Shown piece by piece: positions 20,984 through 63,403 of a stretch of 64,000 nt of DNA. A program made the position numbers and the translations under genes. The first letter of the stretch is position 1; each line of letters starts with the position of its first letter. The notes beneath the pieces are model-generated. The model had not been told where the DNA came from and ran no database searches. It saw nothing but the letters and a program-made list of their open reading frames with translations. This DNA comes from Patescibacteria group bacterium (GTDB lineage Bacteria; Patescibacteriota; UBA1384; JBAYJO01): positions 40,671 to 104,670 of the forward strand of contig JBAYJO010000001.1 of NCBI GenBank assembly GCA_041665085.1, written 5' to 3'.

Positions 20984-20993
20984 GTAATTTTAG

Positions 20994-26457: not shown

Positions 26458-26673
26458 TACTGCACCTCTATTTGTGTGCGAATGCATGTGTTCTTATTGC
26501 TAAGTATATGTTGTTTTATCAAGCTGTCAAGAGTTCATTACTTTTTTTATGGATTAAAATATTGTATTCAAATGTTTTTTTGAGGTAATATATAAATTAG
26601 AGATAGAATCTATTTAGGAGGGAAGTGAATAAAGTTTTGAGGGCAATTTGGAATGAATTTATTGTCTAAAAAT

Positions 26674-27639: not shown

Positions 27640-27750
27640 GAGTTAATTTTATTTTAATAAATTGATTTTTGCAATAAATTTTCTTTTGTTATTTGAGTTG
27701 ATTTAATTAATAAATCGAGCTAATTTAGAGTTAATGAAAAATCAAATAAT

Positions 27751-27840
27751 AAAAATTGGAAAACCTGTAAATTTAAAAAAAAGACTTGGATTTTTTTAAT
27801 TTCTGGGCTTGAAAAAATTGATTATAGTAATTTATTACGG
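27751..27840 (+). pseudogene. Degraded fragment homologous to codons ~13-45 of the 25102 gene
   Basis: ~80% nucleotide identity to 25139-25228, with a frame disruption. Confidence 0.5.
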
Positions 27841-33667: not shown

Positions 33668-34516
33668 ATGAAGAAAGTTTTGAAAGTGATTTGGAATGAG
33701 TTTATTTATGGGGGGCATTTGCTTGCTCTGGGACCAGTAGCCATTAATTTATCTGTGATGACTGCTTTAAAATTACCTATCAATTTTTTTATTTTAGTTG
33801 GAGTATATCTTCTATCATATATTGTTTATTTTTTCGATCGAATTCAGGATTATGATTTAGAATCATCTCAATTAAGAAAGGATTTGTATAAATTTCATTT
33901 TAAATATCGTATTTATATTTCTGTAACAGTAGTTATTGCCTTATTATTATCAATGTATGCAGCCAGCATGCAAAGTTTTTATTTGTCTTTACTATTTATT
34001 ATTTTAGGTTTTTTCTACGGTATTTTTTTTAAAAAATTAACTCATATTATAATTGGATTTAAAAGTTTTTTTGTCGCAATTCTTTATTCTGGCACGATTT
34101 TGTTTACTCTTTCAGTCATCCCAACCGTTAATAGTTTTGGGTTAAAGCTGATTCTGATTTTATTCTTTTTTTATTTTATGCGATGGTTTATTAATACATC
34201 TTTTTGTGATGTTAAGGACAGGGAAGTGGACAAGAAAATTGGTTATAAGACTTTGGCTGCAGTTTTAACCAACAGAGTTTTTTTAATAACAATTCATATA
34301 ATTAATCTTTTTTCATTAATGTTTTTAGTTATAATGATTTATTATTTTAAATTACCTTATTATTTATTTGGGTTATCTTTAGTTTTTCCTTTCACTGTCT
34401 TGTATTTAAATTTATATCAAAAACAGTATGATTTACAGAAATTAACAAATATATGGGCTGACGCAGAAGTTATAATTTGGTTATTTGTATCAATAGGAGG
34501 GTTTAAATGGGTTTAA
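33668..34516 (+). CDS. UbiA-family prenyltransferase
   Basis: Polytopic. Asp-rich motifs FFDRIQDYD and DVKDREVDKKIG. Confidence 0.6.
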   Translation: MKKVLKVIWNEFIYGGHLLALGPVAINLSVMTALKLPINFFILVGVYLLSYIVYFFDRIQDYDLESSQLRKDLYKFHFKYRIYISVTVVIALLLSMYAASMQSFYLSLLFIILGFFYGIFFKKLTHIIIGFKSFFVAILYSGTILFTLSVIPTVNSFGLKLILILFFFYFMRWFINTSFCDVKDREVDKKIGYKTLAAVLTNRVFLITIHIINLFSLMFLVIMIYYFKLPYYLFGLSLVFPFTVLYLNLYQKQYDLQKLTNIWADAEVIIWLFVSIGGFKWV

Positions 34517-36243: not shown

Positions 36244-36373
36244 AAATAGTTTTTAAAGTTCATAAAGTCTATAAAGTCGAAAGGGAAAAAGATTACTTCG
36301 TTTTGCTCGCAATGATAAAGGATATGGTAATGCCTAGAGCTAATCACTCTAGGCATTTATGTCTTATGTGAGG

Positions 36374-37342
36374 CTAGTCGTAGATTGACCAGCCGAGTTG
36401 TTTGATAGTGTCGGCAGAGATGCTGAGCTTGACGAGCTCGTTCTTACTGATTTTAGCGTCCCCTCCCCAGTCGATGACTTTCCAGCTATCTTTTGCTTTC
36501 TTCAGAAGATATGTCGTATCACCACCATACTGATGTTCTCGGGCGTCAACTACATAGTTTGTAATAGCGGCATAGTCGCCCGCGATCTTCTTCTGTCTGA
36601 ACCGATCTTTGTATGGCGGCGGCGTAATGCTAAACGGTGGAGTACATATGTTGTAGTATTCGACCGTTTCCTCAATCGTGAGTATTCTCTTGCTCTTCAG
36701 CAGTTTGATCCTTGATTGTTCCCAAAGCCGTTCGGATCTTTCGAGAATCTTCACACCACAGGGGTTGGAAAATGCCATATCTTTAGGGTGTATAATAGGT
36801 ATTTCCCAACTACGGGAGCCGTAGACATCGGTTATGTAGTATCGCATTGCTTGTGCTGAAGCTATTTCCGATTCAAGAATCCATTTACCATCAGATGATA
36901 CTTTGTTCACGATGTCGGTGTTAGCATTGATCATTTTCCGTAGCGATGTATAAGATATGCTCAATCCTTTGATCTTTGGTGAAGCATTACCGCACTCTAT
37001 TTCCCAGCAGTTGTCGGCGACCTGCTTCATGTTTGTTCCGTCGATATTGACCGCATAGAGATATCTCTGGCGGCTGTTAACTTCGGAGATGAAGTAAATC
37101 GACTTATTGTCTGGTGAGAAAACAGCTGATTCAATGAGGCAGATTGGACCGGGAAATTTGCCGGTGCAAATGAGCTTGTTGTTTCTGCCGTCTAGGTTAG
37201 AAACTTGCAATTCATCTTTCTGCCACCCAATATCAGGGCTTGAAGTTCTCACGATGTACAGCATTTTTGGGTTTGTTGCATTGGTTGATGATGTTGCGAC
37301 GAGCAATACCAAAGTGACAAAAAACAGGATTCTTTTATTCAA
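36374..37342 (-). CDS. Secreted beta-propeller-like protein (paralog 1), GC-rich
   Basis: Signal peptide. SPDNKSIYFIS and SSDGKW PD40-like repeats. C-terminus LGWSIYD. Confidence 0.55.
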   Translation of the reverse strand: MNKRILFFVTLVLLVATSSTNATNPKMLYIVRTSSPDIGWQKDELQVSNLDGRNNKLICTGKFPGPICLIESAVFSPDNKSIYFISEVNSRQRYLYAVNIDGTNMKQVADNCWEIECGNASPKIKGLSISYTSLRKMINANTDIVNKVSSDGKWILESEIASAQAMRYYITDVYGSRSWEIPIIHPKDMAFSNPCGVKILERSERLWEQSRIKLLKSKRILTIEETVEYYNICTPPFSITPPPYKDRFRQKKIAGDYAAITNYVVDAREHQYGGDTTYLLKKAKDSWKVIDWGGDAKISKNELVKLSISADTIKQLGWSIYD

Positions 37343-37739: not shown

Positions 37740-38687
37740 CTAGTCGTTGATTGACCAGCCGAGTCGCTTGGCGGTATTGGCAGTGATGTTGAGCTTGCCG
37801 AGCTTCCTCTTGTCGATCCCTGACTCATCGGAGAAGTAAACGACTTTCCAGCTACCCTGTGTTTTCTTGAGCAGGAAAGTCTCTTCTTCACCGATTCGAT
37901 TCCCTCGTGAATCGACCTCCATTCGAGTTATGCTCGCGACATTACCGATCGATTCGCTTTCTTTGAATTCTTCCCTGTTGGGAGAAAGCGGAATCCCGAG
38001 CGCGGATTTGAGAAGGCAGTAGTATTCGACTGCCTCCTCAATGCTGTACGATTTCTTCTTGAGAAGGTAATCGATCTTGGACTTAAGTTGCGCTATGTGC
38101 AACTTGTCCAACGCCTTCTTTCCGCAGGGGTTGAAGAAGCCGATATCTTGCGTCCTCGTTGCGACCGATAGCCATGTCAGTGAACCATTGGTGGCACTGA
38201 CATAATATCGGAGTTGCCCTTTTGGATCGGTCCATTGTTCAGCCATCCAACATCCATCGGGGCTGACCTTGTTCTCGATCCTCGAGCCGACTACCAGCAT
38301 CTTCTGAAGTGAAGCGTAGCTGATAGTTAGACCCTTGATCTTTTGCGGGGAATTTCCCGCTTCGATCTCCCAGCAATTCGCTATCTTTTTCAGCTTCTTG
38401 CCATCAAGTGTTGAGCTGTAGAGGTACTTTTGTCTACTGTTCACGAAGTAGATGAAGTATATCTCTTTGTTGCTAGGCGAAAAAGTGGCTGCTTCAACGT
38501 ATCCCTTTTCGCCATATAACTTGTTTCCGCAGATCGGAAACCAGTTGGTTCCGTCTGGGTTGCATACGACCAGTCTGGTATTATCCCAGCCGGTCCTTTC
38601 GATGAAGAACATCTTCGGCTGGCAGAGCGCTGACCCTGATATAACTATGGTCAGCAGAATGATGAAAAACGTGACTTTTCTGTTCAA
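37740..38687 (-). CDS. Secreted beta-propeller-like protein (paralog 2), GC-rich
   Basis: ~40% identity to 36374-37342 across the full length. C-terminus LGWSIND. Confidence 0.55.
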   Translation of the reverse strand: MNRKVTFFIILLTIVISGSALCQPKMFFIERTGWDNTRLVVCNPDGTNWFPICGNKLYGEKGYVEAATFSPSNKEIYFIYFVNSRQKYLYSSTLDGKKLKKIANCWEIEAGNSPQKIKGLTISYASLQKMLVVGSRIENKVSPDGCWMAEQWTDPKGQLRYYVSATNGSLTWLSVATRTQDIGFFNPCGKKALDKLHIAQLKSKIDYLLKKKSYSIEEAVEYYCLLKSALGIPLSPNREEFKESESIGNVASITRMEVDSRGNRIGEEETFLLKKTQGSWKVVYFSDESGIDKRKLGKLNITANTAKRLGWSIND

Positions 38688-38996: not shown

Positions 38997-39374
38997 ATGT
39001 ATAAAATTATGTTGGTTGAAGATGATAAAATACTTCAGGAAATGTATAATGCCAGACTTGAAGCAGAGAGCTTTGAAGTCAAAGTGGCTGAAAATGGAAG
39101 AGAAGCAATAAATCAATTAAAGGATTGGCATCCTGATTTAATTTTGCTTGATATTATGATGCCTGAAATGAATGGAATGGAAGTTTTACATTATTTAAAG
39201 TCTGAACCAAAAACAGAAAAGATCCCGGTATTTATTTTGACTGCACTCGGACAATCAAAAGACCGTGAAGCAGGTCTTAAAGCAGGAGCAGATGATTATA
39301 TCGTTAAGTCCGATCTAATGCCAAAAGAAGTGGTGGAGAAGATTAATCAAGTTCTTAAAGTTAAAAGTTCATAA
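38997..39374 (+). CDS. Single-domain response regulator (REC only)
   Basis: IMLVEDD, LILLDIMMP, DDYIVKS. Confidence 0.85.
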   Translation: MYKIMLVEDDKILQEMYNARLEAESFEVKVAENGREAINQLKDWHPDLILLDIMMPEMNGMEVLHYLKSEPKTEKIPVFILTALGQSKDREAGLKAGADDYIVKSDLMPKEVVEKINQVLKVKSS

Positions 39375-39392
39375 AGTTTGTAAAGTCTAAAA

Positions 39393-39737
39393 ATGAAAAT
39401 AAATAGATTTGAGGAAATTATTGCTTGGCAGAAAGCCAGAGAGTTAGTTTTAGATTGTTATGAAACTTTTAATAGTTGTCGAGATTTTAGTTTTTGCGAT
39501 CAACTTAAAAGAGCAGTTGTATCGATAATGAACAATATTGCTGAAGGATTTGAAAGAAAAAGTAATAAAGAATTTAAACAGTTTTTATTTATTTCTAAAG
39601 GTTCATGTGGAGAAGTAAGATCAATGTTAGATTTAGCCATTTCTTTAAACTATATTACTGAAGAAAAATTTGATAAATTGTCTGAACAATCTACTGAAAT
39701 ATCAAAAATTTTATCAGGATTCATAAAAACTCTGTAA
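39393..39737 (+). CDS. Four-helix-bundle protein (23S rRNA intervening-sequence protein family)
   Basis: EIIAWQKARELV ... IMNNIAEGFER ... SKGSCGEV, characteristic of TIGR02436. Confidence 0.75.
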   Translation: MKINRFEEIIAWQKARELVLDCYETFNSCRDFSFCDQLKRAVVSIMNNIAEGFERKSNKEFKQFLFISKGSCGEVRSMLDLAISLNYITEEKFDKLSEQSTEISKILSGFIKTL

Positions 39738-39781
39738 TTTTTCAAGTTTTCTTACTTTATAAACTTTTAACTTTAAGAACT

Positions 39782-40525
39782 TTATGGACTTATTGCAGCG
39801 AAGGGATTATCACGGCCGTCAGAGCCCACTGATGATGGTGTGACGAATTTTTTATATTCAATTAGACTTTGTATAGCTTTTAGCTTATCGATATCAAATT
39901 TAGCGTTTTCAGCGTCACTACTTAAATAATAAACCGTTCCATTTAGAGCAACTGAAACTTTGCCGTCTGAAGGCGAAAGGCTAAGTGATGGCAGGCTGTT
40001 AAATCTTTTGCTTGATTCGAGTTTACAGAGAAAGTCTAAAAAATCTGTGTAAGAACCGCTGACAGTTGCTTGATAACCAACAGCAGTTGCATTGATTGTT
40101 GATGCGTCAGCTGCTTTAGCGGTTGGTATTAATTGATTGTTTTTTGTTACCGGTTCTTCGGTTTTTGTGGCAGGTGCAGGCTCTGATTTTATTTCTGCAT
40201 CAAAGGAGATTGTAGGAATTGCTAGATTGGAGCTTTTTGCCAAGTAATCAAGCTCAAGCATAAATGAACTGTTATCTGATTCATCGGGCATTAGATTATC
40301 TGCTAAAACTCCCAATTTTAATACTTCGTCTTTGTTTTCAATCAGTTTGTTTATTTCATCATATTTTGTTTGCGTTATCTCCAATTCGGAAGATGTGCTG
40401 TCAGATTTATTTTGCCTGTTTGTTAAATTGCTGATTTGAGGAACAATGAAAATAATAATAATTGCTAGCTCAATTAAACTTGAAATAACAAGAATTAATA
40501 TTAATAGTTTATTTTTTATTTTCAT
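39782..40525 (-). CDS. pilO: Pilus assembly protein PilO-like
   Basis: N-terminal TM plus periplasmic domain. Position after pilM-pilN. Confidence 0.5.
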   Translation of the reverse strand: MKIKNKLLILILVISSLIELAIIIIFIVPQISNLTNRQNKSDSTSSELEITQTKYDEINKLIENKDEVLKLGVLADNLMPDESDNSSFMLELDYLAKSSNLAIPTISFDAEIKSEPAPATKTEEPVTKNNQLIPTAKAADASTINATAVGYQATVSGSYTDFLDFLCKLESSKRFNSLPSLSLSPSDGKVSVALNGTVYYLSSDAENAKFDIDKLKAIQSLIEYKKFVTPSSVGSDGRDNPFAAISP

Positions 40526-42123: not shown

Positions 42124-42330
42124 AACCCCTCCTTGCTAAGTTAAAAGTTGAAAGTCTGTAAAGTTCATAAAGTTCAATGAATAGAAAATCTTTAAGACTA
42201 GAAATCAAAGTTTTTAACTTCAAACTTAATCCAATTCTATTCTACTATGATTTGTCAAAAAAAAGAATAAATTCATATTCTGACCATCTTAACTTTATAA
42301 ACTTTTAACTTTATGAACTTTATGAACTAA

Positions 42331-44943: not shown

Positions 44944-46142
44944 ATTGCTCCTACTAAACCATATATTGGCATTAAAACTGAAATTATAACAAAGCCAACT
45001 CCAATGCCTAAAACAATCATAATTACAGGTTCAATTATTGAAGATAAATTTGAAGTAACTATGTCAACTTCGCTTTCATAATAGTCAGATAAAGTTTCAA
45101 GAACATAGTCTGTTTTACCTGATTTTTCACCGACTTTAAGAAGCGAAGGAACGAGATGAGGAAAAAGTTTGTTTTCCTCAAATATTGCTGAAAGAGGCCG
45201 ACCGGCTTTAATTTCTTCGCAGGTTTTATCTAATTTTGTTGCATATATCGAATTATCAATTACCTGACCAACAGTTGTAAAAATTTGATTAATTGGAACT
45301 CCTGATGAAATTAAAGTATATGCGCTTCTAGCAAATCTAGCAGCATAAATTTTTTGAAAAATTCCGCCAAGAATTGGAGCTTTAATTTTAAATAAGTCAA
45401 AATAATGACGGCCCGAGTTTGTTTTAATAAATTTCATAAATCCAATTGACAGGGCGATAACTGCAACCAAGAGAATATACCAATATTTTACTAAAAATCT
45501 GCTTGTTCCAAGCAATATTCTAGTAATCATCGGTAGTTTTACCCCAGTATCATTAAAAACTTTCTCAAGTTGGGGCATTACGAAAATCATTATTAATGTT
45601 GCAACAACAAGTAAAGTAACAAAAATTAAGGCCGGATATGTCATAGCGCTTTTTACTTTAGCTGTTAGCTTATAGTTTTTATCAAGTTGTTCTGACAGGT
45701 TGAGCAAGACTATGTCAAGTTTTCCCGATTCTTCACCTGATTTTATTATACTGGTGTAAAGGGGCGGAAAAACATCCGGATGCTTGGCTAAGCTTTTGGA
45801 AAAACTTTGTCCTCCTTTAATATCGTTTGCAATTTCACCAATAATTTTTTTAAATTTAGGTTTTTCAAACTCATCGGCAATTGAACTTAGTGCATCAACA
45901 ACGGAAAGTCCGGATTTAATCATTATTGCTAGCTCTTTTGTGAAAATGATTTTATCTCGCATGCTGACTTTGTTGAAAAAAGGTAAATTAAGTCCATTTT
46001 TAGTTTCTTTTTTCTCGGTAATATCTGCAACCACAAGTTTTTTTTCTTTTAAAATCACTGCAGCGCTTTTTTCATCTGTTGCATCAATAATACCTTTTTT
46101 GATTTCGCCTAATTTATCGTAAGCAATATATTTAAAGATCAT
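44940..46142 (-). CDS. pilC: Type IV pilus inner-membrane platform protein PilC (GspF family)
   Basis: Two T2SS-F domains. Confidence 0.85.
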   Translation of the reverse strand: MIFKYIAYDKLGEIKKGIIDATDEKSAAVILKEKKLVVADITEKKETKNGLNLPFFNKVSMRDKIIFTKELAIMIKSGLSVVDALSSIADEFEKPKFKKIIGEIANDIKGGQSFSKSLAKHPDVFPPLYTSIIKSGEESGKLDIVLLNLSEQLDKNYKLTAKVKSAMTYPALIFVTLLVVATLIMIFVMPQLEKVFNDTGVKLPMITRILLGTSRFLVKYWYILLVAVIALSIGFMKFIKTNSGRHYFDLFKIKAPILGGIFQKIYAARFARSAYTLISSGVPINQIFTTVGQVIDNSIYATKLDKTCEEIKAGRPLSAIFEENKLFPHLVPSLLKVGEKSGKTDYVLETLSDYYESEVDIVTSNLSSIIEPVIMIVLGIGVGFVIISVLMPIYGLVGAM

Positions 46143-46150
46143 ATTGTGAA

Positions 46151-46185
46151 ATTCCTAATTTCTAATTCCTAATTTCTAATTAACT
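46151..46185. repeat. Partial copy (5' heptamer array only) of the same element
   Basis: AATTCCTAATTTCTAATTCCTAATTTCTAATTAAC between pilC and pilB. Confidence 0.4.
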
Positions 46186-46197
46186 TTAAATTTCGGA

Positions 46198-48018
46198 TTA
46201 ATCCTTTGTTACTCGCCAGACTTCTTCAAGAGTTGTATCGCCACTTATGACTTTTGTTATTCCATCAAGAAATAGTGTTGACATTCCTTGTTTTATTGCC
46301 AATTCTTTGATTTTATCAATTGACACATCTCGCGTGATAATTGATTTAATTTCCGGTGATAATGGAAGCACTTCAAATACTCCAATTCGACCGTGATAAC
46401 CGGTTGAATTACAGGATGGGCATCCAGCTCCTTTGTAAAGTTTTGTTGGCATCTCGATATTATAAATTGAACCAAGTTGAGCTTTGATTTCATCGATTTG
46501 TTGCAGTGTTATGGCTATTTCTTGTTTGCATGATTTACAGATCTGCCGACAAAGTCGTTGAGCAATAATTACATTTATTGACGAGTTGATCAGAAAAGGC
46601 TCGATGCCCATATCAATAAGTCTTGGAATAGCTCCGCTGGCATCGTTTGTGTGAAGAGTTGATAATACAATGTGTCCGGTAAGAGCTGATTGAACTGCCA
46701 TTTCCGCTGTTTCCTTGTCGCGAATTTCCCCAAGCATGATGACATTTGGGTCTTGCCTTAAAATAGTTCGGAGTCCGCTGGCAAAAGTATAGCCGATTTC
46801 TGAATTTACTTGGCTTTGATTGATTCCATTCATTCGATATTCTACTGGATCTTCAAGAGTAACAATGTTTATATCGTCGCTTTTTATCTGATCAATAATT
46901 GCATAGAGCGTGGTTGTTTTACCTGAACCGGTTGGACCGGTAATTAAAACCATACCATGCGGTTTTTTGATATCCGAATCTAAAATTTCATAACCCCTGT
47001 CGCGCAAGCCCAAATCTTTAAGAGTTAATACTCCGCTTGTTTTGTCTAAAATTCTCATTACGATTTTCTCGCCATTCACAGTTGGCAAGGTAGAAACGCG
47101 AAAATCTATTTCTTTTTCATCAAGAATTGTTTGGAATCTGCCGTCTTGAGGCATTCTTTGTTCGTCGATTTTCATATTGCAAAGAATTTTAATACGAGAA
47201 ATAACGGCCGGTTGAATTTCTTTTGGCAAGGTTAAAACTTTACGTAGGATTCCGTCTAGTCGATATCTTACTTCAAGGTTTTCTTCGTTTGGTTCAATAT
47301 GAATATCTGATGTTTGTTCGCGAACCGCTTGTTTTATGATTGAGCTGACAATTTTTGATGCAGGTGCTGATTCGCTTAATTCTTCATTTAGTGGTTTTTT
47401 GATATGCTCTTTTTTTGGTTCTTCGACTTTGACAATTTCTTCAAGTTCTTCTTTATCGCCGGAGTATTGGTTTAAAACATGGTTTAGATCATTTTTTGTG
47501 CAAATATTTGGAATAATTTCATATCCGGTTGATTTTCTGAAAAGTTCAAGTGTTTCGGCATCTTCCGGATCAATCATAGCAACAGTTAGTATTTTGTTTT
47601 CAAGTTTAATCGGAACGGCTTGATATTTTTGAGCAATTTTTTCCGGAATTATTTTTAGAATTTCAGGTGGAATTATGGCATTAGTCAGGTCGATATATGG
47701 TATTGTGTTTGACGGGCCGGAGAAAGATGGTTTTTGGGTAATTTCGGGAGTGGAATTGATCGAATTTTCGATTATTTGTGGTTTTTCATTTTGTTTAATA
47801 TTTGAAAATGAAACAATTTTACCATCCAGAGTAATTTGTTGATTGCCTTGTCTGTCCGGCATTAATTTTAAGATACCTAAATTGCCAAGATCAATTTGAC
47901 CTGATTTATTTAGAATTGCTCGAATCGATTTTACTAAAAAATCCACATCAATCATGGCTTGATTGGGAGTAATACCAGTTTTTTGAGCCAAGAGATTTAT
48001 AAAATCGCGATAAAGCAC
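46198..48018 (-). CDS. pilB: Type IV pilus assembly ATPase PilB (GspE family)
   Basis: Walker A TGPTGSGKTTT. C-terminal Cys cluster CPSC. Confidence 0.9.
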   Translation of the reverse strand: MLYRDFINLLAQKTGITPNQAMIDVDFLVKSIRAILNKSGQIDLGNLGILKLMPDRQGNQQITLDGKIVSFSNIKQNEKPQIIENSINSTPEITQKPSFSGPSNTIPYIDLTNAIIPPEILKIIPEKIAQKYQAVPIKLENKILTVAMIDPEDAETLELFRKSTGYEIIPNICTKNDLNHVLNQYSGDKEELEEIVKVEEPKKEHIKKPLNEELSESAPASKIVSSIIKQAVREQTSDIHIEPNEENLEVRYRLDGILRKVLTLPKEIQPAVISRIKILCNMKIDEQRMPQDGRFQTILDEKEIDFRVSTLPTVNGEKIVMRILDKTSGVLTLKDLGLRDRGYEILDSDIKKPHGMVLITGPTGSGKTTTLYAIIDQIKSDDINIVTLEDPVEYRMNGINQSQVNSEIGYTFASGLRTILRQDPNVIMLGEIRDKETAEMAVQSALTGHIVLSTLHTNDASGAIPRLIDMGIEPFLINSSINVIIAQRLCRQICKSCKQEIAITLQQIDEIKAQLGSIYNIEMPTKLYKGAGCPSCNSTGYHGRIGVFEVLPLSPEIKSIITRDVSIDKIKELAIKQGMSTLFLDGITKVISGDTTLEEVWRVTKD

Positions 48019-48310
48019 AGCCCTCCTTGCTAAGTTAAAAGTTGAAAGTCTGTAAAGTCCATAAAGTTCAATAAGCAGAATATCAGAAGATTTTATAAGT
48101 TAAAAGTTGAAAGTCAGTAAAGTCTTGAATATGTTCGGTGTTATTAAAAATTACTTAGCACCGGCGGACCTATATGCGTAATTTTCAACAACACCTCATA
48201 TTTAGAGATTATAAAGTTAAAAATTGGAATTTTTAACTTAAAATTTCTTCTGACTTTATTTTACTATGATTTGTCAAAAAAAAGAATGACGACTAAACTA
48301 AGAAAGTAAA

Positions 48311-48446
48311 TATCTAATTTCTAATTTCTAATTTTTAATTAATTCTCCAATGATCAAATTATTAGAATGTTTTTAAAGAAAGTTAGAAATTTATATTCTT
48401 ATTTATTCAATTTATTTTAGAAATTAGTTATTAGTAATTAGAAAAT
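48311..48446. repeat. TIR-bounded AT-rich element, copy B
   Basis: Same ends: ATCTAATTTCTAATTTCTAATT...CTCCAATG ... TTAGAAATTAGTTATTAGTAATTAGAAAATT. Confidence 0.55.
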
Positions 48447-48453
48447 TATATTT

Positions 48454-50274: not shown

Positions 50275-52908
50275 ATGGCGCGAAAAGATGAAAAACTGAA
50301 TCAACTAAAATTGCCTCCTCAAAACATTGAGGCAGAAAAGAGTATTTTAGGTTCTATTCTTTTGGATAAAGATGCGATTTTGAAGATTGTTGATTTTTTA
50401 ACAGAAGATGATTTTTATTTGACCGAACATAAACTTATTTATGGTGCAATGGTTAAATTATTTGAAAAAAGATCTCCAATTGATCTGGTAACGCTATCTG
50501 ATGTTTTAGAATCTGAAAAACATTTAGACAGGGTTGGGGGCGCAGATTTTTTAAGCTCGCTTGTAAATGTGGTGCCAACAGCAGCTCATGTGATTGATTA
50601 TGCAAGAATCGTTTCAGATAAATCATCAAGGCAAAGGCTTATTTCTGCCGGTACTAAAATTGTTGAAATGGCATATAATGAAGAGATTGAAACTGCCGAG
50701 GTGATGGATAAATCAGAGCAGCAATTATTTAATGTGAGCCAAAAACAGGTTAAAGATAAATTTATTCCGATTAAAGATGTTTTAGTTGATAGTTTTAATA
50801 GATTGGATAAAATTCATAAGGAAAAAGGGACTTTAAGAGGAGTGCCATCGGGTTATAAGGATTTGGATAATTTACTTTCCGGTTTTCAGCCGTCAGATTT
50901 GTTAATTTTAGCAGCTCGTCCTTCAATGGGTAAAACATCTTTTGCTTTATCGATAGCGCAGCATGCAACAATTGATGAAAAAGTCGGAGTTGGTATTTTT
51001 TCTCTTGAAATGAGCAAGGAGCAGTTGGTTGATCGTTTGATTTGTTCTCAAGCCGGAGTTGATTCGTGGAAGCTTCGAAATGGACATTTGAGTGATGATG
51101 ATTTTAGAAATGTAGGTTATGCAATGGGGCATTTATCTGAAGCGCCTTTGTATATTGATGATTCGCCAATGCTTACAGTGTTAGATATTAGAACCAAAGC
51201 TAGAAGGTTGATGATGGAACAACCGCTTGGGTTAATTATTATTGATTATTTGCAGCTTATTTCAGGTTCATTTAAAAGTGATGGAAACAGAGTTCAAGAG
51301 ATTTCAGAGATTTCTCGAGCATTGAAAGGTTTAGCAAGAGAATTAAATGTGCCGGTGATGGCTCTTTCACAGCTTTCGCGTGCGGTTGAACATCGTGATA
51401 AAAAAGTGCCGCAGCTTTCTGATCTTCGTGAATCGGGCTGTTTAGCTGGCGATACTTTAATTTACAATGCTAAAACCGGACAAAATGAACAGATTAAAAA
51501 TTTGGTTGGAAAGGAATATGTTTGTTTGTCTCTTAATGATAAGAATAAATTAGTAAATACAAAATCTAGTAGGATTTTTTCAACTGGTAGAAAACAAATT
51601 TATGAATTAGTAATGGCTAGTGGTAAGCGAATCAAGGCGACTGCAAATCATAAGTTTTTGAAATTTTATGAGTGGGTTAGGTTAGATCGGTTGAGTGTTG
51701 GTGATTTTTTGGCGACTCCTCGGGAAATAAGATTTTCAGATTCAACTCAAGATATTTCTGATAATAAAATTATTTTATTAGCTCATTTAATTGGTGATGG
51801 CTGTTATTTGTCGCATCAACCTTTGCATTATACTAATGCTGATCCGCAATGTCTTAAAATTGTTGACGAGGTTTCTTATGATGAGTTTAAAACCAAAAAC
51901 AGATTAGTTAAGCAACAGAATTGGTTTCATTTGTATTTATCCGCACCAATTAAATTAGCACGAGGCAGAAAAAACCCTATTATAAAATGGTTAGATGAAG
52001 ATTTGAATATTTTTAATCAACGATCTGGAGAAAAAAGAATTCCAAAAATAGTTTTCTCTCTTGATAATAAAAAAGTATCTTTATTTATTAGTCATTTATT
52101 TGCAACTGATGGAGGATTAACAAAATCATCTGGAATTTGGAGGCTTCACTATGCTTCAAAAAGTAGAAGGCTGATCGAAGATTTGCAGCATTTATTGTTG
52201 AGATTTGAGATTCTTTCAAGAATTAAAGAAAATAAGAAAAAAGGATATGCAATTGTCTATGATTTAGTAATTTCGGGATCAGATAACCAGCTAAGTTTTT
52301 TGATAAATATCGGAATATTCGGAGAGAAGGAAAAAAATGTTAAACTTGCTATTGCTGAATTAAGAATGATTAATTCTAATACAAATGTTGATATTATACC
52401 ATCTGAAGTGTGGCAGAAAATTAAAGATGGCTTTATGAAACTAAATTGGTCTGCGCGGAAGTTTCATCAAGAAATGAATTGGGCTTATAGCGGCACGCAA
52501 AGATATAAAAATGGCTTATCCAGAGATCGTTTGGACAAAATTGCCGAGGTTCTTAAAAATAATGAATTAAAACAAATTGCTGATTCCGATATATTTTGGG
52601 ATCAAATTAAAGAAATAAATAAGCTGGGTGTTGAAGATGTTTATGATATAACAATTCCTGATAGTCATAATTTTATTGCAAATGATATGATCGTTCATAA
52701 TTCGATTGAGCAAGATGCAGATGTAGTGATGTTTATTTACCGAGAAGATTATTACGAGGCTGATACCGAAAGAAAAGGTATTACTGATATTTTAATTAGA
52801 AAACATAGAAACGGTCCCATTGGATCAGTTGAACTATTTTTTGTACCGGAACAGATGACGTTTAGATCAATTGATAAAAAAAGATCAGTGCCGAGTGAGA
52901 TAGAATAG
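50275..52908 (+). CDS. dnaB: Replicative DNA helicase DnaB interrupted by an intein
   Basis: DnaB N- and C-terminal domains. The extein sequence resumes at SIEQDADVVMFIYRE. Confidence 0.9.
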   Translation: MARKDEKLNQLKLPPQNIEAEKSILGSILLDKDAILKIVDFLTEDDFYLTEHKLIYGAMVKLFEKRSPIDLVTLSDVLESEKHLDRVGGADFLSSLVNVVPTAAHVIDYARIVSDKSSRQRLISAGTKIVEMAYNEEIETAEVMDKSEQQLFNVSQKQVKDKFIPIKDVLVDSFNRLDKIHKEKGTLRGVPSGYKDLDNLLSGFQPSDLLILAARPSMGKTSFALSIAQHATIDEKVGVGIFSLEMSKEQLVDRLICSQAGVDSWKLRNGHLSDDDFRNVGYAMGHLSEAPLYIDDSPMLTVLDIRTKARRLMMEQPLGLIIIDYLQLISGSFKSDGNRVQEISEISRALKGLARELNVPVMALSQLSRAVEHRDKKVPQLSDLRESGCLAGDTLIYNAKTGQNEQIKNLVGKEYVCLSLNDKNKLVNTKSSRIFSTGRKQIYELVMASGKRIKATANHKFLKFYEWVRLDRLSVGDFLATPREIRFSDSTQDISDNKIILLAHLIGDGCYLSHQPLHYTNADPQCLKIVDEVSYDEFKTKNRLVKQQNWFHLYLSAPIKLARGRKNPIIKWLDEDLNIFNQRSGEKRIPKIVFSLDNKKVSLFISHLFATDGGLTKSSGIWRLHYASKSRRLIEDLQHLLLRFEILSRIKENKKKGYAIVYDLVISGSDNQLSFLINIGIFGEKEKNVKLAIAELRMINSNTNVDIIPSEVWQKIKDGFMKLNWSARKFHQEMNWAYSGTQRYKNGLSRDRLDKIAEVLKNNELKQIADSDIFWDQIKEINKLGVEDVYDITIPDSHNFIANDMIVHNSIEQDADVVMFIYREDYYEADTERKGITDILIRKHRNGPIGSVELFFVPEQMTFRSIDKKRSVPSEIE
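51439..52701 (+). mobile_element. Intein (421 aa) with LAGLIDADG homing-endonuclease domain inside DnaB
   Basis: Begins CLAGDTLI (block A) and ends VHN with a +1 Ser. LAGLIDADG motifs LLAHLIGDGCY and LFISHLFATDGGL. Confidence 0.85.
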
Positions 52909-53863: not shown

Positions 53864-55867
53864 GTGTCTAATATAGATTTACTTGAAGGTTTAAATGAAA
53901 GACAAAAAGAAGCGGTGCTTTTAACAGAAGGTCCGCTCCTTGTTATTGCCGGGGCTGGATCAGGAAAAACCAAGGTTTTGACGCATAGATTAGCCCATTT
54001 AATTCTTGATAAAAATATTAGTCCATATAGTATTTTGGCAGTTACATTTACAAATAAAGCAGCAGGGGAAATGGGTCAGCGAATGCATTCGCTACTCATT
54101 TCAAATTCCAAATATCAAATTCCAAATCCCAAAAAAAATCAAAATTCCGAACATACTGCCGACTTTATGAACTTTCAACTCGCCTCTTCGGCGAGCGCCG
54201 ATAAGGCGCTTTATGAACTTTCGACTAAATTGCCATGGCTTGGAACTTTTCACTCTATTTGCGTTAGGATTTTAAGAAAAGAAATTCAAAATATTGGCTA
54301 TGAGCGAAATTTTGTTATCTATGATTCAGATGATTCACTTTCTTGTATTAAAAAAATTATTAGGGAATTAAAATGGGATCCGAAGGAGATTAATCCAAAT
54401 TCTGTCAGAAATATGATTTCAAGTGCTAAGAGCGAATTTATTGACCCTAATACTTACGCGAAATATGCTGATGGATATTTTCAGGAAAAAGTAACGGAAA
54501 TTTATAAAAGATATCAAGATTTTTTGAGAAGATCTAATGCCCTTGATTTTGATGATTTGCTTAACCAGACATTAGTTTTATTTGAAGAAAAGCCGGAGAT
54601 TTTGTTTAAATATCAGGATTTATTTAAATATATTTTGATTGATGAGTATCAAGATACAAATCAAGCCCAGTATTTGCTGGCGAAAAAATTATCAGATAAA
54701 CACAAAAATATTTGCGTGGTTGGCGATGATTATCAAGCAATTTATTCTTGGCGTGGGGCAAATTTTAAAAATATTTTAAATTTTGAGCGAGATTATCCAA
54801 AGGCTAAAGTAGTAAAATTGGAACAAAATTATCGAAATAGTCAAAATATTATTCAAGCGTCAGAAAATGTGATTAAGAAAAATACTTTGCGTACAGATAA
54901 AAATATGTGGACGAAAAATGAAGAAGGGGCGCCGATTACGATTTATAAGGCAGCAGATGAGAGCGATGAGGCTGATTTTATTGTTGGTGAAATTGTAACT
55001 CTTAAAAAAGCAGGTGAAAGTTTAAATTCAATGGCGATTTTGTATCGAACAAATGCTCAATCAAGATCTCTTGAAGAAGCATTTTTGAATTATGGCATTC
55101 CATATCGGGTTATTGGTTCCTTGAAGTTTTATGAAAGACGAGAAATTAAAGATATAATTTCTTATTTGCGTTTAATAGTAAATCCGTCTGATTTTATTGC
55201 TTTTGAACGAGCGGTATCAGTACCTCCTCGAGGCATTGGCGATAAAACAATAGAACAGTTAGTAAAAATTCCAAATTACAAATCCCAAATTACAAATAAA
55301 TCTCAAATCCTAAATCTCAATATTCAAAAAAAAATGCAGGATTTTTTGATTATGATTGAAGATTTAAGAAATATGGCGGCGGAGAATTTACCGGCAGATT
55401 TTATTGATATTTTAACTGCCCGAACTAATTATCGAAGTTATTTGGTTGATGGGACTATTGAAGGGGAAGCAAGATGGGAAAATGTTGAGGAGCTTAAAAC
55501 AGTAGCGCAGAATTTTGATAGTCTAGAATCTTTTTTGGAAAATATTGCTTTGATGACTGATCTTGATGAATATGATGAAGCTAAAGAATCTGTGACTTTA
55601 ATGACAATGCATTGTGCTAAAGGTCTTGAGTTTGAAACGGTTTTTATTGCAGGAATGGAAGAAGGCCTTTTTCCTCATTCAAGATCAATTAGCGAGCCGA
55701 ACGAAATGGAAGAGGAGAGACGGCTTTGTTATGTCGGGATGACTCGAGCCAAAATGAGGCTTTATATGATTTATGCGGGTTCCAGAACAGTTTTTGGACG
55801 AACTCAAATGGGAATTAAATCGCGTTTTTTAAACGAGATTCCAGAGTGGTTGTGCGAGGAGATTTAG
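53864..55867 (+). CDS. UvrD/PcrA-family ATP-dependent DNA helicase
   Basis: Walker A AGAGSGKT, motif II DEYQDTN, motif III GDDYQAIYSWRGA, NYRN. Contains in-frame repeat-derived insertions. Confidence 0.9.
   Translation: MSNIDLLEGLNERQKEAVLLTEGPLLVIAGAGSGKTKVLTHRLAHLILDKNISPYSILAVTFTNKAAGEMGQRMHSLLISNSKYQIPNPKKNQNSEHTADFMNFQLASSASADKALYELSTKLPWLGTFHSICVRILRKEIQNIGYERNFVIYDSDDSLSCIKKIIRELKWDPKEINPNSVRNMISSAKSEFIDPNTYAKYADGYFQEKVTEIYKRYQDFLRRSNALDFDDLLNQTLVLFEEKPEILFKYQDLFKYILIDEYQDTNQAQYLLAKKLSDKHKNICVVGDDYQAIYSWRGANFKNILNFERDYPKAKVVKLEQNYRNSQNIIQASENVIKKNTLRTDKNMWTKNEEGAPITIYKAADESDEADFIVGEIVTLKKAGESLNSMAILYRTNAQSRSLEEAFLNYGIPYRVIGSLKFYERREIKDIISYLRLIVNPSDFIAFERAVSVPPRGIGDKTIEQLVKIPNYKSQITNKSQILNLNIQKKMQDFLIMIEDLRNMAAENLPADFIDILTARTNYRSYLVDGTIEGEARWENVEELKTVAQNFDSLESFLENIALMTDLDEYDEAKESVTLMTMHCAKGLEFETVFIAGMEEGLFPHSRSISEPNEMEEERRLCYVGMTRAKMRLYMIYAGSRTVFGRTQMGIKSRFLNEIPEWLCEEI
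54164..54232 (+). repeat. RPE-like palindromic element inserted in-frame in the helicase gene
   Basis: CTCGCC-TCTTC-GGCGAG and GCGCC-GATAA-GGCGC hairpins, flanked by direct repeats CTTTATGAACTTTC(A/G)ACT. Confidence 0.6.
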
Positions 55868-55959
55868 AATAGTATTGAGTATAGAGTATTGGGTATTGGG
55901 TATCGGGTATCGGGAAAATAGAGATTGTTTCGTCGGGACTCCTCGCAATGACAAAGGAG

Positions 55960-56022
55960 TCGAAAGTTTATAAAGCGCCTCATTGGCGCTCGCCGAAGAG
56001 GCGAGTTGAAAGTTCGTAAAGT
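55960..56022 (+). repeat. RPE-like palindromic element, intergenic copy (inverse orientation)
   Basis: ~90% identical to the reverse complement of 54164-54232. Confidence 0.6.
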
Positions 56023-56151
56023 ATTTTTAAATTTTAAAATTCAAAACAATAAATTATTTTTTACACTTATAATTTAGTAAAAATTGAAAAAGAAAATTGT
56101 AATAAAACAAATGGTCGGAGAACGAGTCTCCGACCGAGTTGTGCCAGGATA

Positions 56152-57192
56152 TTATCTCGACACTCGATCTATTGCTTTGTTGATCAGATCAGCGACTTCT
56201 TCGTGCTTGATCTTATCGCGCTGGTTGAACAGAACCGCGAAGTTGATACCATCTGTTCTCTGACAGGCGATAGCGGTAGTGCCAGGAAGGCTGCCGTAAA
56301 ACATGTAGCTATAGCCGGTTGTGCTGTTGCGACTATCTCCGCTGATCCAGTACTTGTCCAGGAACCGACAGAGTTCGACAGTTGAGATTGCAAAACAGTC
56401 GAAATAAGCCGGACTTTCTGGCTCGTACCAGATTTCACTTTCATCGCGACTTTCCTTGGGTAAAGTGAGTGCGATGTTGGTTATACCGGCTCTTTTGCAG
56501 ATAGAGCCGACAAGAAAGTCGTAGTAGGGCATGCCAGCGGCTTTTTCGACTGCCCTTCTCAAAACCACCGAACCGAAGTTGGAATAGACTTCTTTGGTGC
56601 CGGGGTCATAATCCAGTGGGCGAGTCAGCATGTATGCGATAATGTTTCGCATTGTTGGTTCGGTCTTCTGACCACTCTTGGCCATGAGTTGCCTCACCGC
56701 TTCCGAGCTCTTGGGTGAAAAGCCGTCGTTTTCGGCTGACCAGCCAAGTTTGTGGTCGATCACATTTTGGATTGTGATCTGGTTGACTCTTGCGTCAGCT
56801 ATGCTGCCATAAGGCTGAACGCCAAGGAGCGGAAATACTGCTGTATTTGCTTTCAGAATCCCTTGTTGAATCAGTTCTTTGGCACAGGCATTACCAAAGC
56901 ATTTGTCGATACTGGCAATGCGCATGCGAGTTTCTGGATTGATTGGTTTGGTTTGGCTCTTGTCTTGCCAGCCATAACCGCGAATCATCCAAAATTTGCC
57001 TCTGTAGGCAACTGCGATAGTAGCGGCTTTGTAGCCTGTTTGTTTCATAATGGAACACATGACTTGATCAACCGCTTCCATCCTCCTAGTATAGATACCA
57101 GTGGATGGCAGCATTTCTGCTGCAAAGATGAACCGGGGAATTGCGATCAGTATGATCGCAAAAACTGAAGATCTGCATTTCATCGAAATCAT
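56152..57192 (-). CDS. Beta-lactamase-family serine hydrolase (PBP/esterase type), secreted, GC-rich
   Basis: Signal peptide. SIDK (SxxK) and YSN (YxN) motifs. Confidence 0.65.
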   Translation of the reverse strand: MISMKCRSSVFAIILIAIPRFIFAAEMLPSTGIYTRRMEAVDQVMCSIMKQTGYKAATIAVAYRGKFWMIRGYGWQDKSQTKPINPETRMRIASIDKCFGNACAKELIQQGILKANTAVFPLLGVQPYGSIADARVNQITIQNVIDHKLGWSAENDGFSPKSSEAVRQLMAKSGQKTEPTMRNIIAYMLTRPLDYDPGTKEVYSNFGSVVLRRAVEKAAGMPYYDFLVGSICKRAGITNIALTLPKESRDESEIWYEPESPAYFDCFAISTVELCRFLDKYWISGDSRNSTTGYSYMFYGSLPGTTAIACQRTDGINFAVLFNQRDKIKHEEVADLINKAIDRVSR

Positions 57193-57390
57193 CCTTTCCT
57201 CGAGTTCTAGAACGCTAATTCTATCGGCATAAGTATAATACTTTTTTTAAAAAAATCAATAGATAAATACTTCATTGGGTTTGAGGATCTGACGAAAAAT
57301 ACCATTTTCGCTTCAAAAGCGCATTTGTCGATAGACCCTTGACCGTATAGCGGTGTGTTGTTATGATATTTTTGCAACCCGAAAATATAA

Positions 57391-58446
57391 TTGAGGGGAA
57401 AGCCGTGTATCAATAAGATATGTGGCAGAGGAGGAATTATATCACGCTCTTCCTTACCAGCTTCAAGCGCGCTTATAATTTTAGCAATATTGGTTACAAT
57501 TTTTTCCGGCGCAAATGAGAAAACCGAGTCAGCCGGCAAAGTTAAAGGAGAGGCGACCATTGCCCCCCTTTTTATGAGCGATAAAATCGATACTTTTTAT
57601 GGACCTCGCGGTCTTTTTACTTATGAAGAAATGTTTAAATCAATTAAGGCAACAATTTATCCGGAAGATAAATACATTGGTTTCCCTCCGCCGGAGTTAG
57701 GTGAGGGATCGGTAATTAGTGTTTATCGCGCGATGTCGGTTAATTTAACTGATGCAAATGAAAAACAAATATATCGAACTTGGCAAACATCAGTTATTGA
57801 TTTGCTTACTGAAAAGAAAATAATTTTAGGTAATCAAGATACTATTTTGCCTGATAAAAATTCAATTTTGTTTCGAGATATGAATATTGTAATTACTCGT
57901 GTTTCTGAAACTGATATTGATGAATTTGAGCCGATCAAATATAAAACTGTTACAAAGCAAACGAAAGATATGGAAAAAGGAACCCAGAGTCTGGAGCAAA
58001 AGGGAAAAAATGGAAAGCTCAAAAAAACTTATCATGTTAGAAGAGAGAATAATAAAGAAGTTTCTCGAAAATTAATCAATAAGGAAGTTGTTGTAGAATC
58101 TGTTGATGAAATTATTCTTATTGGAACCGGACCAAAACTTGCCAAATCCGGCCCATACTTAACTGAAATTAATTCGGCTGCAAAGCAATATGATATAAAT
58201 GGAACAGCTTTAAGCTGTCTTATGATGATTGAATCAGGTGGTACGGCTAATACCGGTTTTCCAGATGCCCAATATAATGGTTTATTTCAGTATGAAGAAG
58301 GTTTTTGGGCTGATATTAGCAAAAAAGCAGGTTATGGCGGATCAAGCATTTATAACGGCCCTGCTCAAATCTATACAACAGCTTATGCCTTAACTCATGG
58401 TTTTGCGACTCGTTGGCCTCCGTGGAAGAGATGTAGTGATAAATAA
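57391..58446 (+). CDS. Cell-wall protein with G5 domain and Rpf-like transglycosylase C-terminal domain
   Basis: VVESVDEIILIGTG (G5-like). C-terminal region MMIESGG...NGLFQY is lysozyme-like. Confidence 0.5.
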   Translation: MRGKPCINKICGRGGIISRSSLPASSALIILAILVTIFSGANEKTESAGKVKGEATIAPLFMSDKIDTFYGPRGLFTYEEMFKSIKATIYPEDKYIGFPPPELGEGSVISVYRAMSVNLTDANEKQIYRTWQTSVIDLLTEKKIILGNQDTILPDKNSILFRDMNIVITRVSETDIDEFEPIKYKTVTKQTKDMEKGTQSLEQKGKNGKLKKTYHVRRENNKEVSRKLINKEVVVESVDEIILIGTGPKLAKSGPYLTEINSAAKQYDINGTALSCLMMIESGGTANTGFPDAQYNGLFQYEEGFWADISKKAGYGGSSIYNGPAQIYTTAYALTHGFATRWPPWKRCSDK

Positions 58447-58457
58447 GTATTAATTAA

Positions 58458-58606
58458 GAATTTCTAATTTCTAATTTCTAAATAAAATCCAATGTTTAAA
58501 AAAATAAATTATAGAGTAATTTATTCGAAAAATGTTATAATAACTAGGTTAGCCATTATTAATTTAGTCATTAGTTAGGAATTAGTAATTAAATATTAGA
58601 AATTTT
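58458..58606. repeat. TIR-bounded AT-rich element, copy C
   Basis: GAATTTCTAATTTCTAATTTCTAA...ATCCAATG ... TTAGGAATTAGTAATTAAATATTAGAAATTTT. Confidence 0.55.
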
Positions 58607-58612
58607 ATAAAT

Positions 58613-59476
58613 ATGATTGATTTAACAAATATTTCTTTAATTAAAAGTTTACTCAAGATTGATAATTCATCTCCTGACAGAAGGATGGGTCAAAACTTTT
58701 TGATTAGCAGCAAAAGCTTGGAAAGAATTTCCAACTCAACTGAACTTGAGGGTCAGACTGTTTTAGAGATTGGAACCGGTCTTGGCGTATTGACTCAAGA
58801 GCTTTGTAAAAAAGCTAAAAGAGTTATATCGGTTGAAAAAGACGAGCGAATGTATAATATTGCAAAAGACGTTTTAATTTTTGACAATTTAACTCTTTTG
58901 AATGAAGACATTTTGGATTTTGAAGTTGAAAAATATATTTCGGGTGAGTTTAAGATCGTAGCGAATATTCCTTATCAAATTACTTCTCCGATAATCAGAA
59001 AATTTCTGCCCAATAAAAATCTTACAGAGATGATTTTATTGATGCAAAAAGAGGTAGCAGAGCGTATTTGCGCAAAACCAGGTAGCAGCAAGCGAGGATA
59101 TTTGACGCTTGTTTGTGAATTTTATAGTGATCCGTCGATTCTTTTCGGCATATCAAAAAATTGTTTTTGGCCAAGCCCGAAAGTTGATAGCTCGGTAGTA
59201 AAGTTTAAAGTGCCTCTTCGGCAATCGCCGGAGAGGCGAGTTTATGAAGATATTAATGCCCATAAAGTTGATGAAAAAGAACTATTTAGGATAGTACAGG
59301 CTGGTTTTTCATCAAAAAGAAAACAACTTTTGAATTCATTATCAGCTGGATTGAGATGTGATAAATCCGAAATCGAAAATATTTTAAATAAAGTTAATAT
59401 TATTCCGACACGACGAGCTGAAACTTTGACGCTTGAGGAATGGTGCTTAATTACCAAAAAAATACCAGTCAATTAA
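58613..59476 (+). CDS. rsmA: 16S rRNA (adenine1518/1519-N6)-dimethyltransferase
   Basis: GQNFL, VLEIGTGLG, NIPYQITSP. Confidence 0.85.
   Translation: MIDLTNISLIKSLLKIDNSSPDRRMGQNFLISSKSLERISNSTELEGQTVLEIGTGLGVLTQELCKKAKRVISVEKDERMYNIAKDVLIFDNLTLLNEDILDFEVEKYISGEFKIVANIPYQITSPIIRKFLPNKNLTEMILLMQKEVAERICAKPGSSKRGYLTLVCEFYSDPSILFGISKNCFWPSPKVDSSVVKFKVPLRQSPERRVYEDINAHKVDEKELFRIVQAGFSSKRKQLLNSLSAGLRCDKSEIENILNKVNIIPTRRAETLTLEEWCLITKKIPVN
59196..59249 (+). repeat. RPE-like palindromic element inserted in-frame in rsmA
   Basis: AAAGTGCCTCTTCGGCAATCGCCGGAGAGGCGAGTTTATGAAG aligns with the 55960-56022 copy. It encodes KVPLRQSPERRVYE. Confidence 0.55.
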
Positions 59477-61009: not shown

Positions 61010-61141
61010 GATAGTTAGTAAAGTTCGTAAAGTCGAAAGTTTATAAAGTTTATAAAGTTGAAGGTCTAGATAAATAAAATTTTTAATAATTGCAAAACTG
61101 CCCAAAGAATCTTTGGGCAGTTTAGTCAATGTGTTAAGACG

Positions 61142-63285: not shown

Positions 63286-63386
63286 TTATTCTAATTTCTA
63301 ATTAATTTTCAATGAATAAATTATTAAAAATCATACTTAAATCATTGGTTGTTGTTAATTGTTTAGAAATTAAAAATTAGAAATTT
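63286..63386. repeat. TIR-bounded AT-rich element, copy D
   Basis: TTATTCTAATTTCTAATTAATTTTCAATG ... TTAGAAATTAAAAATTAGAAATTT. Confidence 0.5.
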
Positions 63387-63403
63387 ATTAATTGAGTTAT
63401 GAT

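Follow-up and report, generated by a model that had tools for sequence, protein, structure and literature searches.

How can a conserved housekeeping gene acquire a GC-rich palindromic repeat within its reading frame and remain a gene? This question is raised by a stretch of 64,000 nucleotides (the window) from a Patescibacteria group bacterium (assembly GCA_041665085.1, contig JBAYJO010000001.1, positions 40,671 to 104,670), in which a 30-nt GC-rich core is present three times: within the open reading frame (ORF) of a PcrA/UvrD-type helicase, within rsmA (ksgA), and in intergenic DNA. The genome, which belongs to the Patescibacteria or candidate phyla radiation (CPR), is AT-rich, with a GC content of ~34% in the window, and the contig of ~150 kb was also recovered by separate assemblies of ENA, JGI and Logan data. 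The helicase ORF (53864..55867, plus strand; 667 aa, NCBI MFA6422916.1) matches the Pfam families UvrD-helicase (1.5e-90) and UvrD_C (3.4e-78), with PcrA (1PJR, 7.5e-183) as the best solved structure; the rsmA ORF (58613..59476, plus strand; 287 aa, NCBI MFA6422920.1) matches RrnaAD (4.2e-53). A first-pass annotation of this DNA had described a 55-65 bp element inserted in frame into two essential genes, analogous to the Rickettsia palindromic elements (RPEs). Rickettsia is the best-known source of in-frame palindromic repeats in housekeeping genes; to call rsmA/ksgA "essential" goes too far, since E. coli can do without it. Our analysis demonstrates that the palindromic repeat family is real and statistically robust, and that two of its copies are intragenic and in frame. 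We think it reasonably probable that it represents a non-autonomous family of a CPR lineage, similar to the repetitive extragenic palindromes (REPs), which would insert site-specifically and without duplication of its target.

In the helicase gene the core occupies 54179..54208 (plus strand), exactly ten codons (L106-A115) with a boundary that is ambiguous by 1 nt, and it sits in a composite element (54163..54227, plus strand) made up of a unit pair from a 9-bp-periodic array, the core, and a second unit pair. The intergenic composite (55959..56021, plus-strand coordinates) has the same order of array, core and array, in the orientation opposite to that of the helicase copy, and separates the helicase gene from a convergent beta-lactamase-like gene; its core was placed at 55975..56004 (plus strand) from the hairpin motifs and fold analysis. 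The rsmA core (59210..59239, plus strand) is again exactly ten codons long (V200-R209, VPLRQSPERR) and falls in the inter-domain linker of the protein. Three more copies, all of them intergenic, were found among JGI metagenome contigs, on three contigs of a single metagenome (Ga0172379). The hairpin motifs in the window are where they had been reported and are well above chance expectation: TCGCC-N5-GGCGA is present three times (54180, 55990 and 59225) against 0.00 expected, and GCGCC-N5-GGCGC twice (54195 and 55975) against 0.01. The pairing of these two hairpins holds for the helicase and intergenic copies but not for rsmA, in which the second hairpin is TGCC-N5-GGCA. The intergenic copy is indeed close to the reverse complement of the helicase copy, with an inverted repeat of 83 nt at 87% identity and four mismatched positions within the 65-nt composite. 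The rsmA copy displays 84% identity over 37 nt; it is recovered at E=1.8e-11 by a hidden Markov model (HMM) trained on the other five copies (nhmmer), and at 2.7e-9 by a core-only HMM, so the similarity among the copies is significant.

An alignment of the six copies shows that the 30-nt core is better conserved than its flanks, with TAAAG on its left and TT on its right invariant in all six. The core has two competing folds, and the twin-hairpin structure proposed in the first-pass annotation, into which it does fold, is only one of them: twin 5-bp hairpins leave 98% of the cells of the alignment paired, one 12-bp hairpin across the entire core leaves 89% paired, and the latter is the RNA minimum-free-energy fold in several copies. 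The second hairpin of rsmA carries a compensatory C-G to U-A change, and the copy at locus L006 has a U-G pair within the twin-hairpin fold. Matches to the covariance model that we built from these copies rest on sequence only; the structure was tested separately with correct structure strings.

The core is a multiple of three nucleotides in length and is free of stop codons in five of the six frames of each copy, and both ORFs stay open straight through their inserts, as the first-pass annotation had noted. The two genes read the core in opposite orientations and different frames, as LASSASADKA in the helicase and VPLRQSPERR in RsmA, and therefore share no conserved peptide. Survival of the genes can be explained by a core of ten codons with few stops and a defined junction. 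Alignment with orthologues shows that both segments are lineage-specific with respect to their nearest relatives: a syntenic relative (ENA ERZ27297473), which has the same gene order and 52-80% amino acid identity, has no core and no array in its 25 kb. The core peptides are absent from the 120 PcrA and 120 RsmA homologues listed, and a search of 1.84 billion representative proteins with a 30-aa helicase peptide returned just one unrelated repeat protein; a chimeric six-frame peptide query returned nothing at E<=10 and was probably uninformative, as the parent proteins were also unscored. These searches bear directly on the possibility that the segments are ancestral coding sequence, or resemble one another by chance, and are not insertions at all. 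Both sites are length-variable in homologues, and the N-terminal part of the helicase loop is similar to loops of more distant homologues, as would suit such a reading. Against it stand the recovery of the rsmA copy by an independently trained HMM where no copies are expected, the use of the same DNA in different frames and orientations in two genes, and the lack of the peptides elsewhere, and we consider it effectively refuted.

The composite encodes residues 100-121 of the helicase (DFMNFQ-LASSASADKA-LYELST), a segment unique to this protein. The spacing between the conserved TFTNKAA and GTFHS motifs is 59 aa, against 25 in the syntenic relative and 22-25 in the three nearest homologues, which makes the loop 34 aa longer than that of the relative; across 118 homologues the spacing ranges from 20 to 80 residues with a median of 35, and the PcrA loop is therefore a general indel hot spot. 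In the structural comparison, query residues 79-123 replace the 6-residue loop 81-86 of Geobacillus PcrA (1PJR), and the AlphaFold predicted local distance difference test score (pLDDT) is <50 for residues 85-113. The core shares this expanded loop with an AAATYCC-type low-complexity repeat directly upstream of the element (54103..54137, plus strand; ISNSKYQIPNPKKNQNS). The N-terminal part of the loop (ISNSKYQIPNPKKNQNS; ISNSKYQIPNPK...) is the part that resembles loops of more distant PcrA homologues, and its polarity is therefore ambiguous.

The insert in RsmA is simpler. The left flank of the core encodes the conserved beta-strand VVKFK, and subtraction of the 30 nt leaves VVKFK-VYEDINAHK-VDEKELF, which can be set against VIKIK-RKEQIPD-VDEKEFF in the syntenic relative; the linker is 12 aa longer than that of the relative, and the core (V200-R209) accounts for ten of these residues. 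The pLDDT falls to 60-67 for residues 201-220, against 94 overall, in a stretch that comes after the last strand of the methyltransferase domain. Mapping onto structures, as the first-pass annotation had suggested, places both inserts in flexible, low-confidence loops. Its view of the whole 55-65 bp as a single insert is not borne out by either gene: rsmA has gained little beyond the 30-nt core, and in the helicase the core is inside a longer insert together with array units and the low-complexity repeat.

A GC-rich hairpin within an open frame could also be dealt with after transcription, through ribosomal bypassing of the kind seen in T4 gene 60 and the mitochondrial "byp" elements, or through removal at the RNA level, in which case the inserts would be untranslated. 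The stable hairpin at the insert and the analogy with bypassed GC-rich palindromic inserts in AT-rich mitochondrial genes suit this idea, which we nevertheless regard as very improbable: the reading frame continues through both inserts, no stop codon marks a take-off site, and the two direct repeats of the helicase lie 46 nt from each other, a distance equal to 1 modulo 3. We rejected a ribosomal hop between these repeats, since the 46-nt offset would put LPWLGTFHS out of frame.

Several further repeats were observed in and around the helicase gene. Two AAATYCC-type repeats are present in the ORF (54103-54137 and 55266-55332, 83% alike) and encode KSQI/IPNPK-like peptides; the second region (KIPNYKSQITNKSQILNLNIQKK) has a variable form common to many Patescibacterial PcrA homologues. 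In a homologue with 56% identity (P0008), an 8-bp hairpin (GGCAAACG-CTAA-CGTTTGCC; L014:10370-10400) forms the end of the PcrA loop and shares bases with the conserved LPW codons; the remaining loop is an AT-rich CAAAT-type repeat and not the double hairpin. Just past the helicase stop codon there is a GGGTAT(T/C) 7-mer run (55880-55915), 87% identical to L007:2617-2662; that contig comes from a different metagenome, and its coding DNA cannot otherwise be aligned with the window. A similarity between 54226-54244 and 55940-55958 overlaps conserved KLPWLG codons, and we judged it to be chance or microhomology.

What was inserted, and where, can be read from the flanks. The 17-18 nt on either side of the helicase core had been described as an 18-bp target-site duplication; they belong to an intergenic array with a 9-bp period (AAAGTTCAT-like), and the duplication fails because the same flanks are found at the intergenic copy and at hairpin-free arrays. 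The 17-nt motif CTTTATGAACTTTCAAC is present 13 times in the window against 0.7 expected, mostly in arrays without a hairpin. A classical miniature inverted-repeat transposable element was rejected on the same ground, the proposed duplication being identical at the intergenic copy and at hairpin-free sites. The helicase and intergenic copies show the same difference between their flanks (CAAC left of the core, CGAC right of it), and these flanks therefore did not arise by independent duplication at each site. Taking out exactly 30 nt restores perfect 9-nt phase at loci L005, L006 and L007, which identifies the core as an insert at AAAG^TT within an array unit, with no duplication and a 1-nt boundary ambiguity. 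The junction TAAAG^TT is exact in every copy.

The arrays also exist without the core: a regular-expression census found eight such sites within the window and a ninth just upstream. The array at 61020..61057 (plus strand) exemplifies this landing-site-type sequence without a core; the others in the window are at 36255-36283, 39357-39385, 42144-42172, 48038-48066 and 48103-48122, and on the minus strand at 39755-39783 and 42293-42321. Outside the window, 9-mer arrays are present at L018:7961-7983 and L005:1576-1605. The covariance model of the filled copies matches the empty arrays as 31-nt stretches that reach across model positions 1-61, so that both flanks are contiguous and the core is missing. 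The flanks are a separate, widespread 9-mer array, which is either the landing site of the core or co-travels with it.

The arrays lie at gene boundaries and are concentrated between 36 and 61 kb of the window. Several overlap stop codons and therefore encode the last residues of proteins, as in a response regulator (38997-39374, ending ...VLKVKSS*) and the ORF at L005 17-1594. A gene for a 114-aa 23S_rRNA_IVP protein (a four-helix-bundle family; 39393-39737) lies between inverted repeats at 39346-39394 and 39737-39785; these are 49-nt 9-mer arrays, 84% complementary, and give the gene a cassette-like look. Two upstream blocks are duplicated, 42127-42190 with 48021-48084 (92%) and 42199-42268 with 48218-48287 (80%); they hold a ribosome-binding site and 9-mer arrays, precede genes that are pilM-like and pilB/T2SSE-like, and have the appearance of a common promoter and leader.

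We propose a model in which the mobile unit would be the 30-bp GC-rich imperfect palindrome, with two adjacent 5-6-bp hairpins or one 12-bp hairpin. It would insert at TAAAG^TT, a target supplied by the 9-bp-periodic AT-rich intergenic arrays of the genome, and would make no duplication. Landing in coding DNA that carries the target would add ten residues instead of breaking the gene; the two coding targets would have been the rsmA linker (...AAAGTTTAAAG^TTTATGAAG...) and an array already within the expanded PcrA loop. Copies would survive only where they are tolerated, in the disordered surface loop of helicase domain 1A and in the inter-domain linker of RsmA. Spread may be catalyzed in trans by a hairpin-recognizing HUH/Y1 enzyme, either a REP-associated tyrosine transposase (RAYT) or one of IS200/IS605 type, acting on single-stranded DNA; a hairpin-defined core, a fixed adjacent pentanucleotide, the lack of a duplication, and a non-coding unit too small for autonomy match the elements moved by such enzymes. 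What we observed directly is that all copies belong to one family, that they share a precise junction without a duplication, that the relative lacks them, that the reading frame is preserved and that the inserts lie in loops.

A number of points weigh against this model. Neither a Y1 transposase nor a RAYT nor any other transposase was found in the 81 kb of source genome covered by called genes and by tblastn with Patescibacterial Y1_Tnp. Six copies are known in all, and with n=6 sequences covariation is not significant for either fold. At 30 nt the core is shorter than any characterized IS200/IS605-derived element and has no room for guide sequences. Translation of the inserts is presumed. 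The phenylalanine of VVKFK is unique among the aligned RsmA homologues, which may mean that a few nucleotides of the rsmA left flank were imported with the core, blurring the picture of a core-only insertion. Finally, the helicase and intergenic copies share flank-specific differences, which means that the copied stretch was at least 64 nt long, a pattern as compatible with recombination as with transposition.

This last point leads to the main rival, homology-driven copying between arrays in which no transposase takes part. Here the core would have been acquired once in an array and then spread, or been erased, between arrays by gene conversion, template switching or illegitimate recombination with AAAGTTNNT units as homology arms; the intragenic copies would have arisen where coding DNA held, or had earlier acquired, array-like sequence. 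The shared unit of the helicase and intergenic copies, CAAC/CGAC difference included, fits with this, and so does the distance of only 1.7 kb between these two copies; so do the confinement of all three copies to 5.1 kb, the missing transposase, and the rsmA left flank, which is array-like apart from a 2-nt gap and encodes the unusual phenylalanine. The route is harder to reconcile with the very short homology at rsmA (~15 nt, gapped, on the left and ~9 nt on the right), and with the presence of the same core at 87-93% identity in organisms whose coding DNA is unalignable at the nucleotide level, which needs strong constraint or transfer. We regard homology-driven spread as a possible but rather unlikely explanation, and continue to favor site-specific insertion of the core.

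The distribution of the copies bears on a further alternative. The genome-wide count suggested in the first-pass annotation was run over the 81.3 kb of source genome within reach of our scans, and to that extent it is answered: there are three copies only, all within 5.1 kb, a clustering with p ~0.011 by our calculation. A scan of 185,579 species-representative genomes with AACTCGCCTCTYCGGCGANNGCC gave one chance match, in Parvibaculum, and no copies were found in viral contigs, phage records or plasmid records. The JGI collection is without the window's own contigs, so all counts are lower bounds. The Ga0172379 cores are 87-93% identical to those of the window, and the DNA around them shares only other short repeats with it; all three read GTAGA in their second loop, as opposed to GAAGA or GGAGA in the window, and the copies carry the signature of their source. 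Four of the six copies are extragenic, and the intergenic ones lie within ~100 nt of gene boundaries in inconsistent contexts (a 5' untranslated region, between co-directional genes, and between convergent genes). No Rfam 15 family matches the element at gathering or permissive thresholds. The candidate of a rho-independent terminator was rejected: the copies were not flagged in a terminator scan, their tail is TTGAAAG or TTTATGAA with no U-tract, and their positions relative to genes are inconsistent.

The core could instead be a functional cis-element under selection, such as a palindromic site for a binding protein or a recombinase (11-6-11 architecture), or a hairpin for RNA stability or attenuation; its intragenic copies would then be incidental or regulatory. 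Its strong conservation across genomes with diverged coding DNA, the invariance of hairpin 2 in all six copies, the proximity of the intergenic copies to gene boundaries, and folding energies well under what shuffling gives (z-scores of -2.9 to -4.9) would all be expected of such an element. The inconsistent orientation and position relative to genes would not, nor would the lack of a U-tract, of a terminator call and of an Rfam family; moreover the core is absent at the same gene boundaries in the syntenic relative, and there is no evident reason for a regulatory site to be present in two unrelated housekeeping ORFs in opposite orientations. We judge this explanation improbable.

Comparison with known elements helps to place the family. 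RPEs are ~150 bp in length, form ten families in Rickettsia with a conserved encoded peptide, and have many copies in frame within unrelated housekeeping ORFs at positions compatible with the fold (PMC10969869). The family described here is likewise a dispersed palindromic repeat, with two of its six known copies in frame in low-confidence loops; it differs in size (a core of 30 nt and a composite of ~65 nt, against ~100-150 bp), in having no common peptide, in the placement of the core at a defined TAAAG^TT in 9-mer arrays, and in its host, a Patescibacterium. The parallel drawn in the first-pass annotation is apt as a functional analogy of in-frame, loop-located copies; membership of the RPE family would fail on size and on the missing common peptide, and RPEs are, moreover, known only from Rickettsia.

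The features of REPs, their REPIN doublets and RAYTs were taken from published work (PMC3116915, PMC3337134). As in REPs and REPINs, we see a short GC-rich imperfect palindrome of 20-40 nt that is intergenic, repeated, and free of target-site duplication; as in a REP doublet, two similar hairpin units are inverted (loop TCATT against the reverse complement TCTTC); and as with REPs, copies of one source share diagnostic bases. The differences are the lack of a spacer between the units, the link to a 9-bp-periodic array, and the in-frame intragenic copies, REPs being extragenic by definition. REPs are also numerous in their genomes and typically flank a cognate RAYT gene; no RAYT was found in the 81 kb searched. 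Elements of the IS200/IS605 family have hairpin-defined ends and insert beside a fixed 4-5-nt sequence without duplication (PMC3201880, PMC3597680, PMC6006769). Miniature derivatives of this family would have distinct subterminal hairpins at the left and right ends, guide sequences, and excision that depends on the transposase. The core resembles them in its fixed adjacent sequence (TAAAG on the left and TT on the right, 6/6 copies) and in the lack of duplication, and it contains two hairpins; it is far smaller than characterized members, with no space for a guide sequence, and the hairpins of the Y1_Tnp gene at locus L015 (see below) are unrelated to it in sequence. The GC clusters and byp elements of yeast mitochondria are also short GC-rich palindromic inserts in an AT-rich genome, found within protein-coding genes as well, but in byp elements the frame is broken and ribosomes skip the insert, whereas here the frame is open and would be lost by a hop between the flanking repeats. 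By these comparisons, REPs or miniature IS200/IS605-like elements would be the closest mechanistic class.

Other Patescibacteria show that HUH/Y1 genes and comparable inserts are present in the phylum. At L015:10827-11609 a gene for a 242-aa protein with a Y1_Tnp domain (PF01797) directly follows rsmA and lies between identical 23-nt hairpins (TCCCGAAAGCCGGGCTTTCGGGA), the left of which is inside the 3' end of rsmA; hairpin-flanked Y1_Tnp genes thus exist in the phylum. The same locus has an unrelated GC-rich palindrome at the same RsmA linker (10615-10634; ATTCCCGC-GCAA-GCGGGAAT), in frame and encoding SFPRKRES. At L016 another unrelated palindrome is found at this linker (GAGGTCAGACCTC-N11-GAGGTCTGACCTC), in frame and encoding RGQTSRPTGGLTS; it resembles an intergenic palindrome of the same locus (L016:3889-3927 and 7307-7333), a likeness that is suggestive only. 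Events of the RPE type may thus have happened repeatedly within the phylum. A bolder generalization, which is speculative and on balance doubtful, would hold that several unrelated tiny palindromic families, each a stop-free multiple of three in length, are inserted by HUH enzymes at AT-rich motifs across the phylum and remodel the RsmA-linker and PcrA Ia-Ib loops, with the arrays as dedicated landing pads. If true, protein loops would evolve across the phylum by an RPE-like route, which could explain part of the unusual protein insertions of the CPR.

Within the paper library searched, we found no relevant account of transposable elements of palindromic, REP-like or miniature type from Patescibacteria/CPR. 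The family would be a very small example of its kind, in which a sharp TAAAG^TT junction and a length of 30 nt, or ten codons, could explain mechanistically how the host genes survive. The unrelated RsmA-linker palindromes suggest a recurrent process that could contribute to loop diversification in reduced, AT-rich genomes. In practice, inserts of this kind can lead astray gene calling, sequence alignment and any phylogeny that relies on CPR marker genes.

The window holds other repeats and a mobile element apart from those above. Intergenic runs of the 7-mer AATTTCT are found at 20831-20989, 46140-46199, 48299-48447, 58442-58612 and 63289-63393, often as inverted pairs ~50 nt apart, and one of them is shared with L005:5359-5402. 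Two paralogous unannotated genes (36374-37342 and 37740-38687) have a local GC content of 42%; considered as possible transposases, they gave only weak matches to PD40 beta-propellers. An 11-12-bp hairpin and a TCGCAATGAYA motif come after each gene, and the motif is also present at 55943 beside the intergenic copy of the core. The DnaB gene (50275-52908, 877 aa) contains an intein with a LAGLIDADG endonuclease domain, and the DnaB of the relative is intein-free at 457 aa. Finally, repeated blocks at 25044-25228, 26567-26661, 27747-27838 and 33669-33706 are 75-87% identical and span the upstream regions and 5' ends of small genes, which suggests a paralogous family with conserved leaders.

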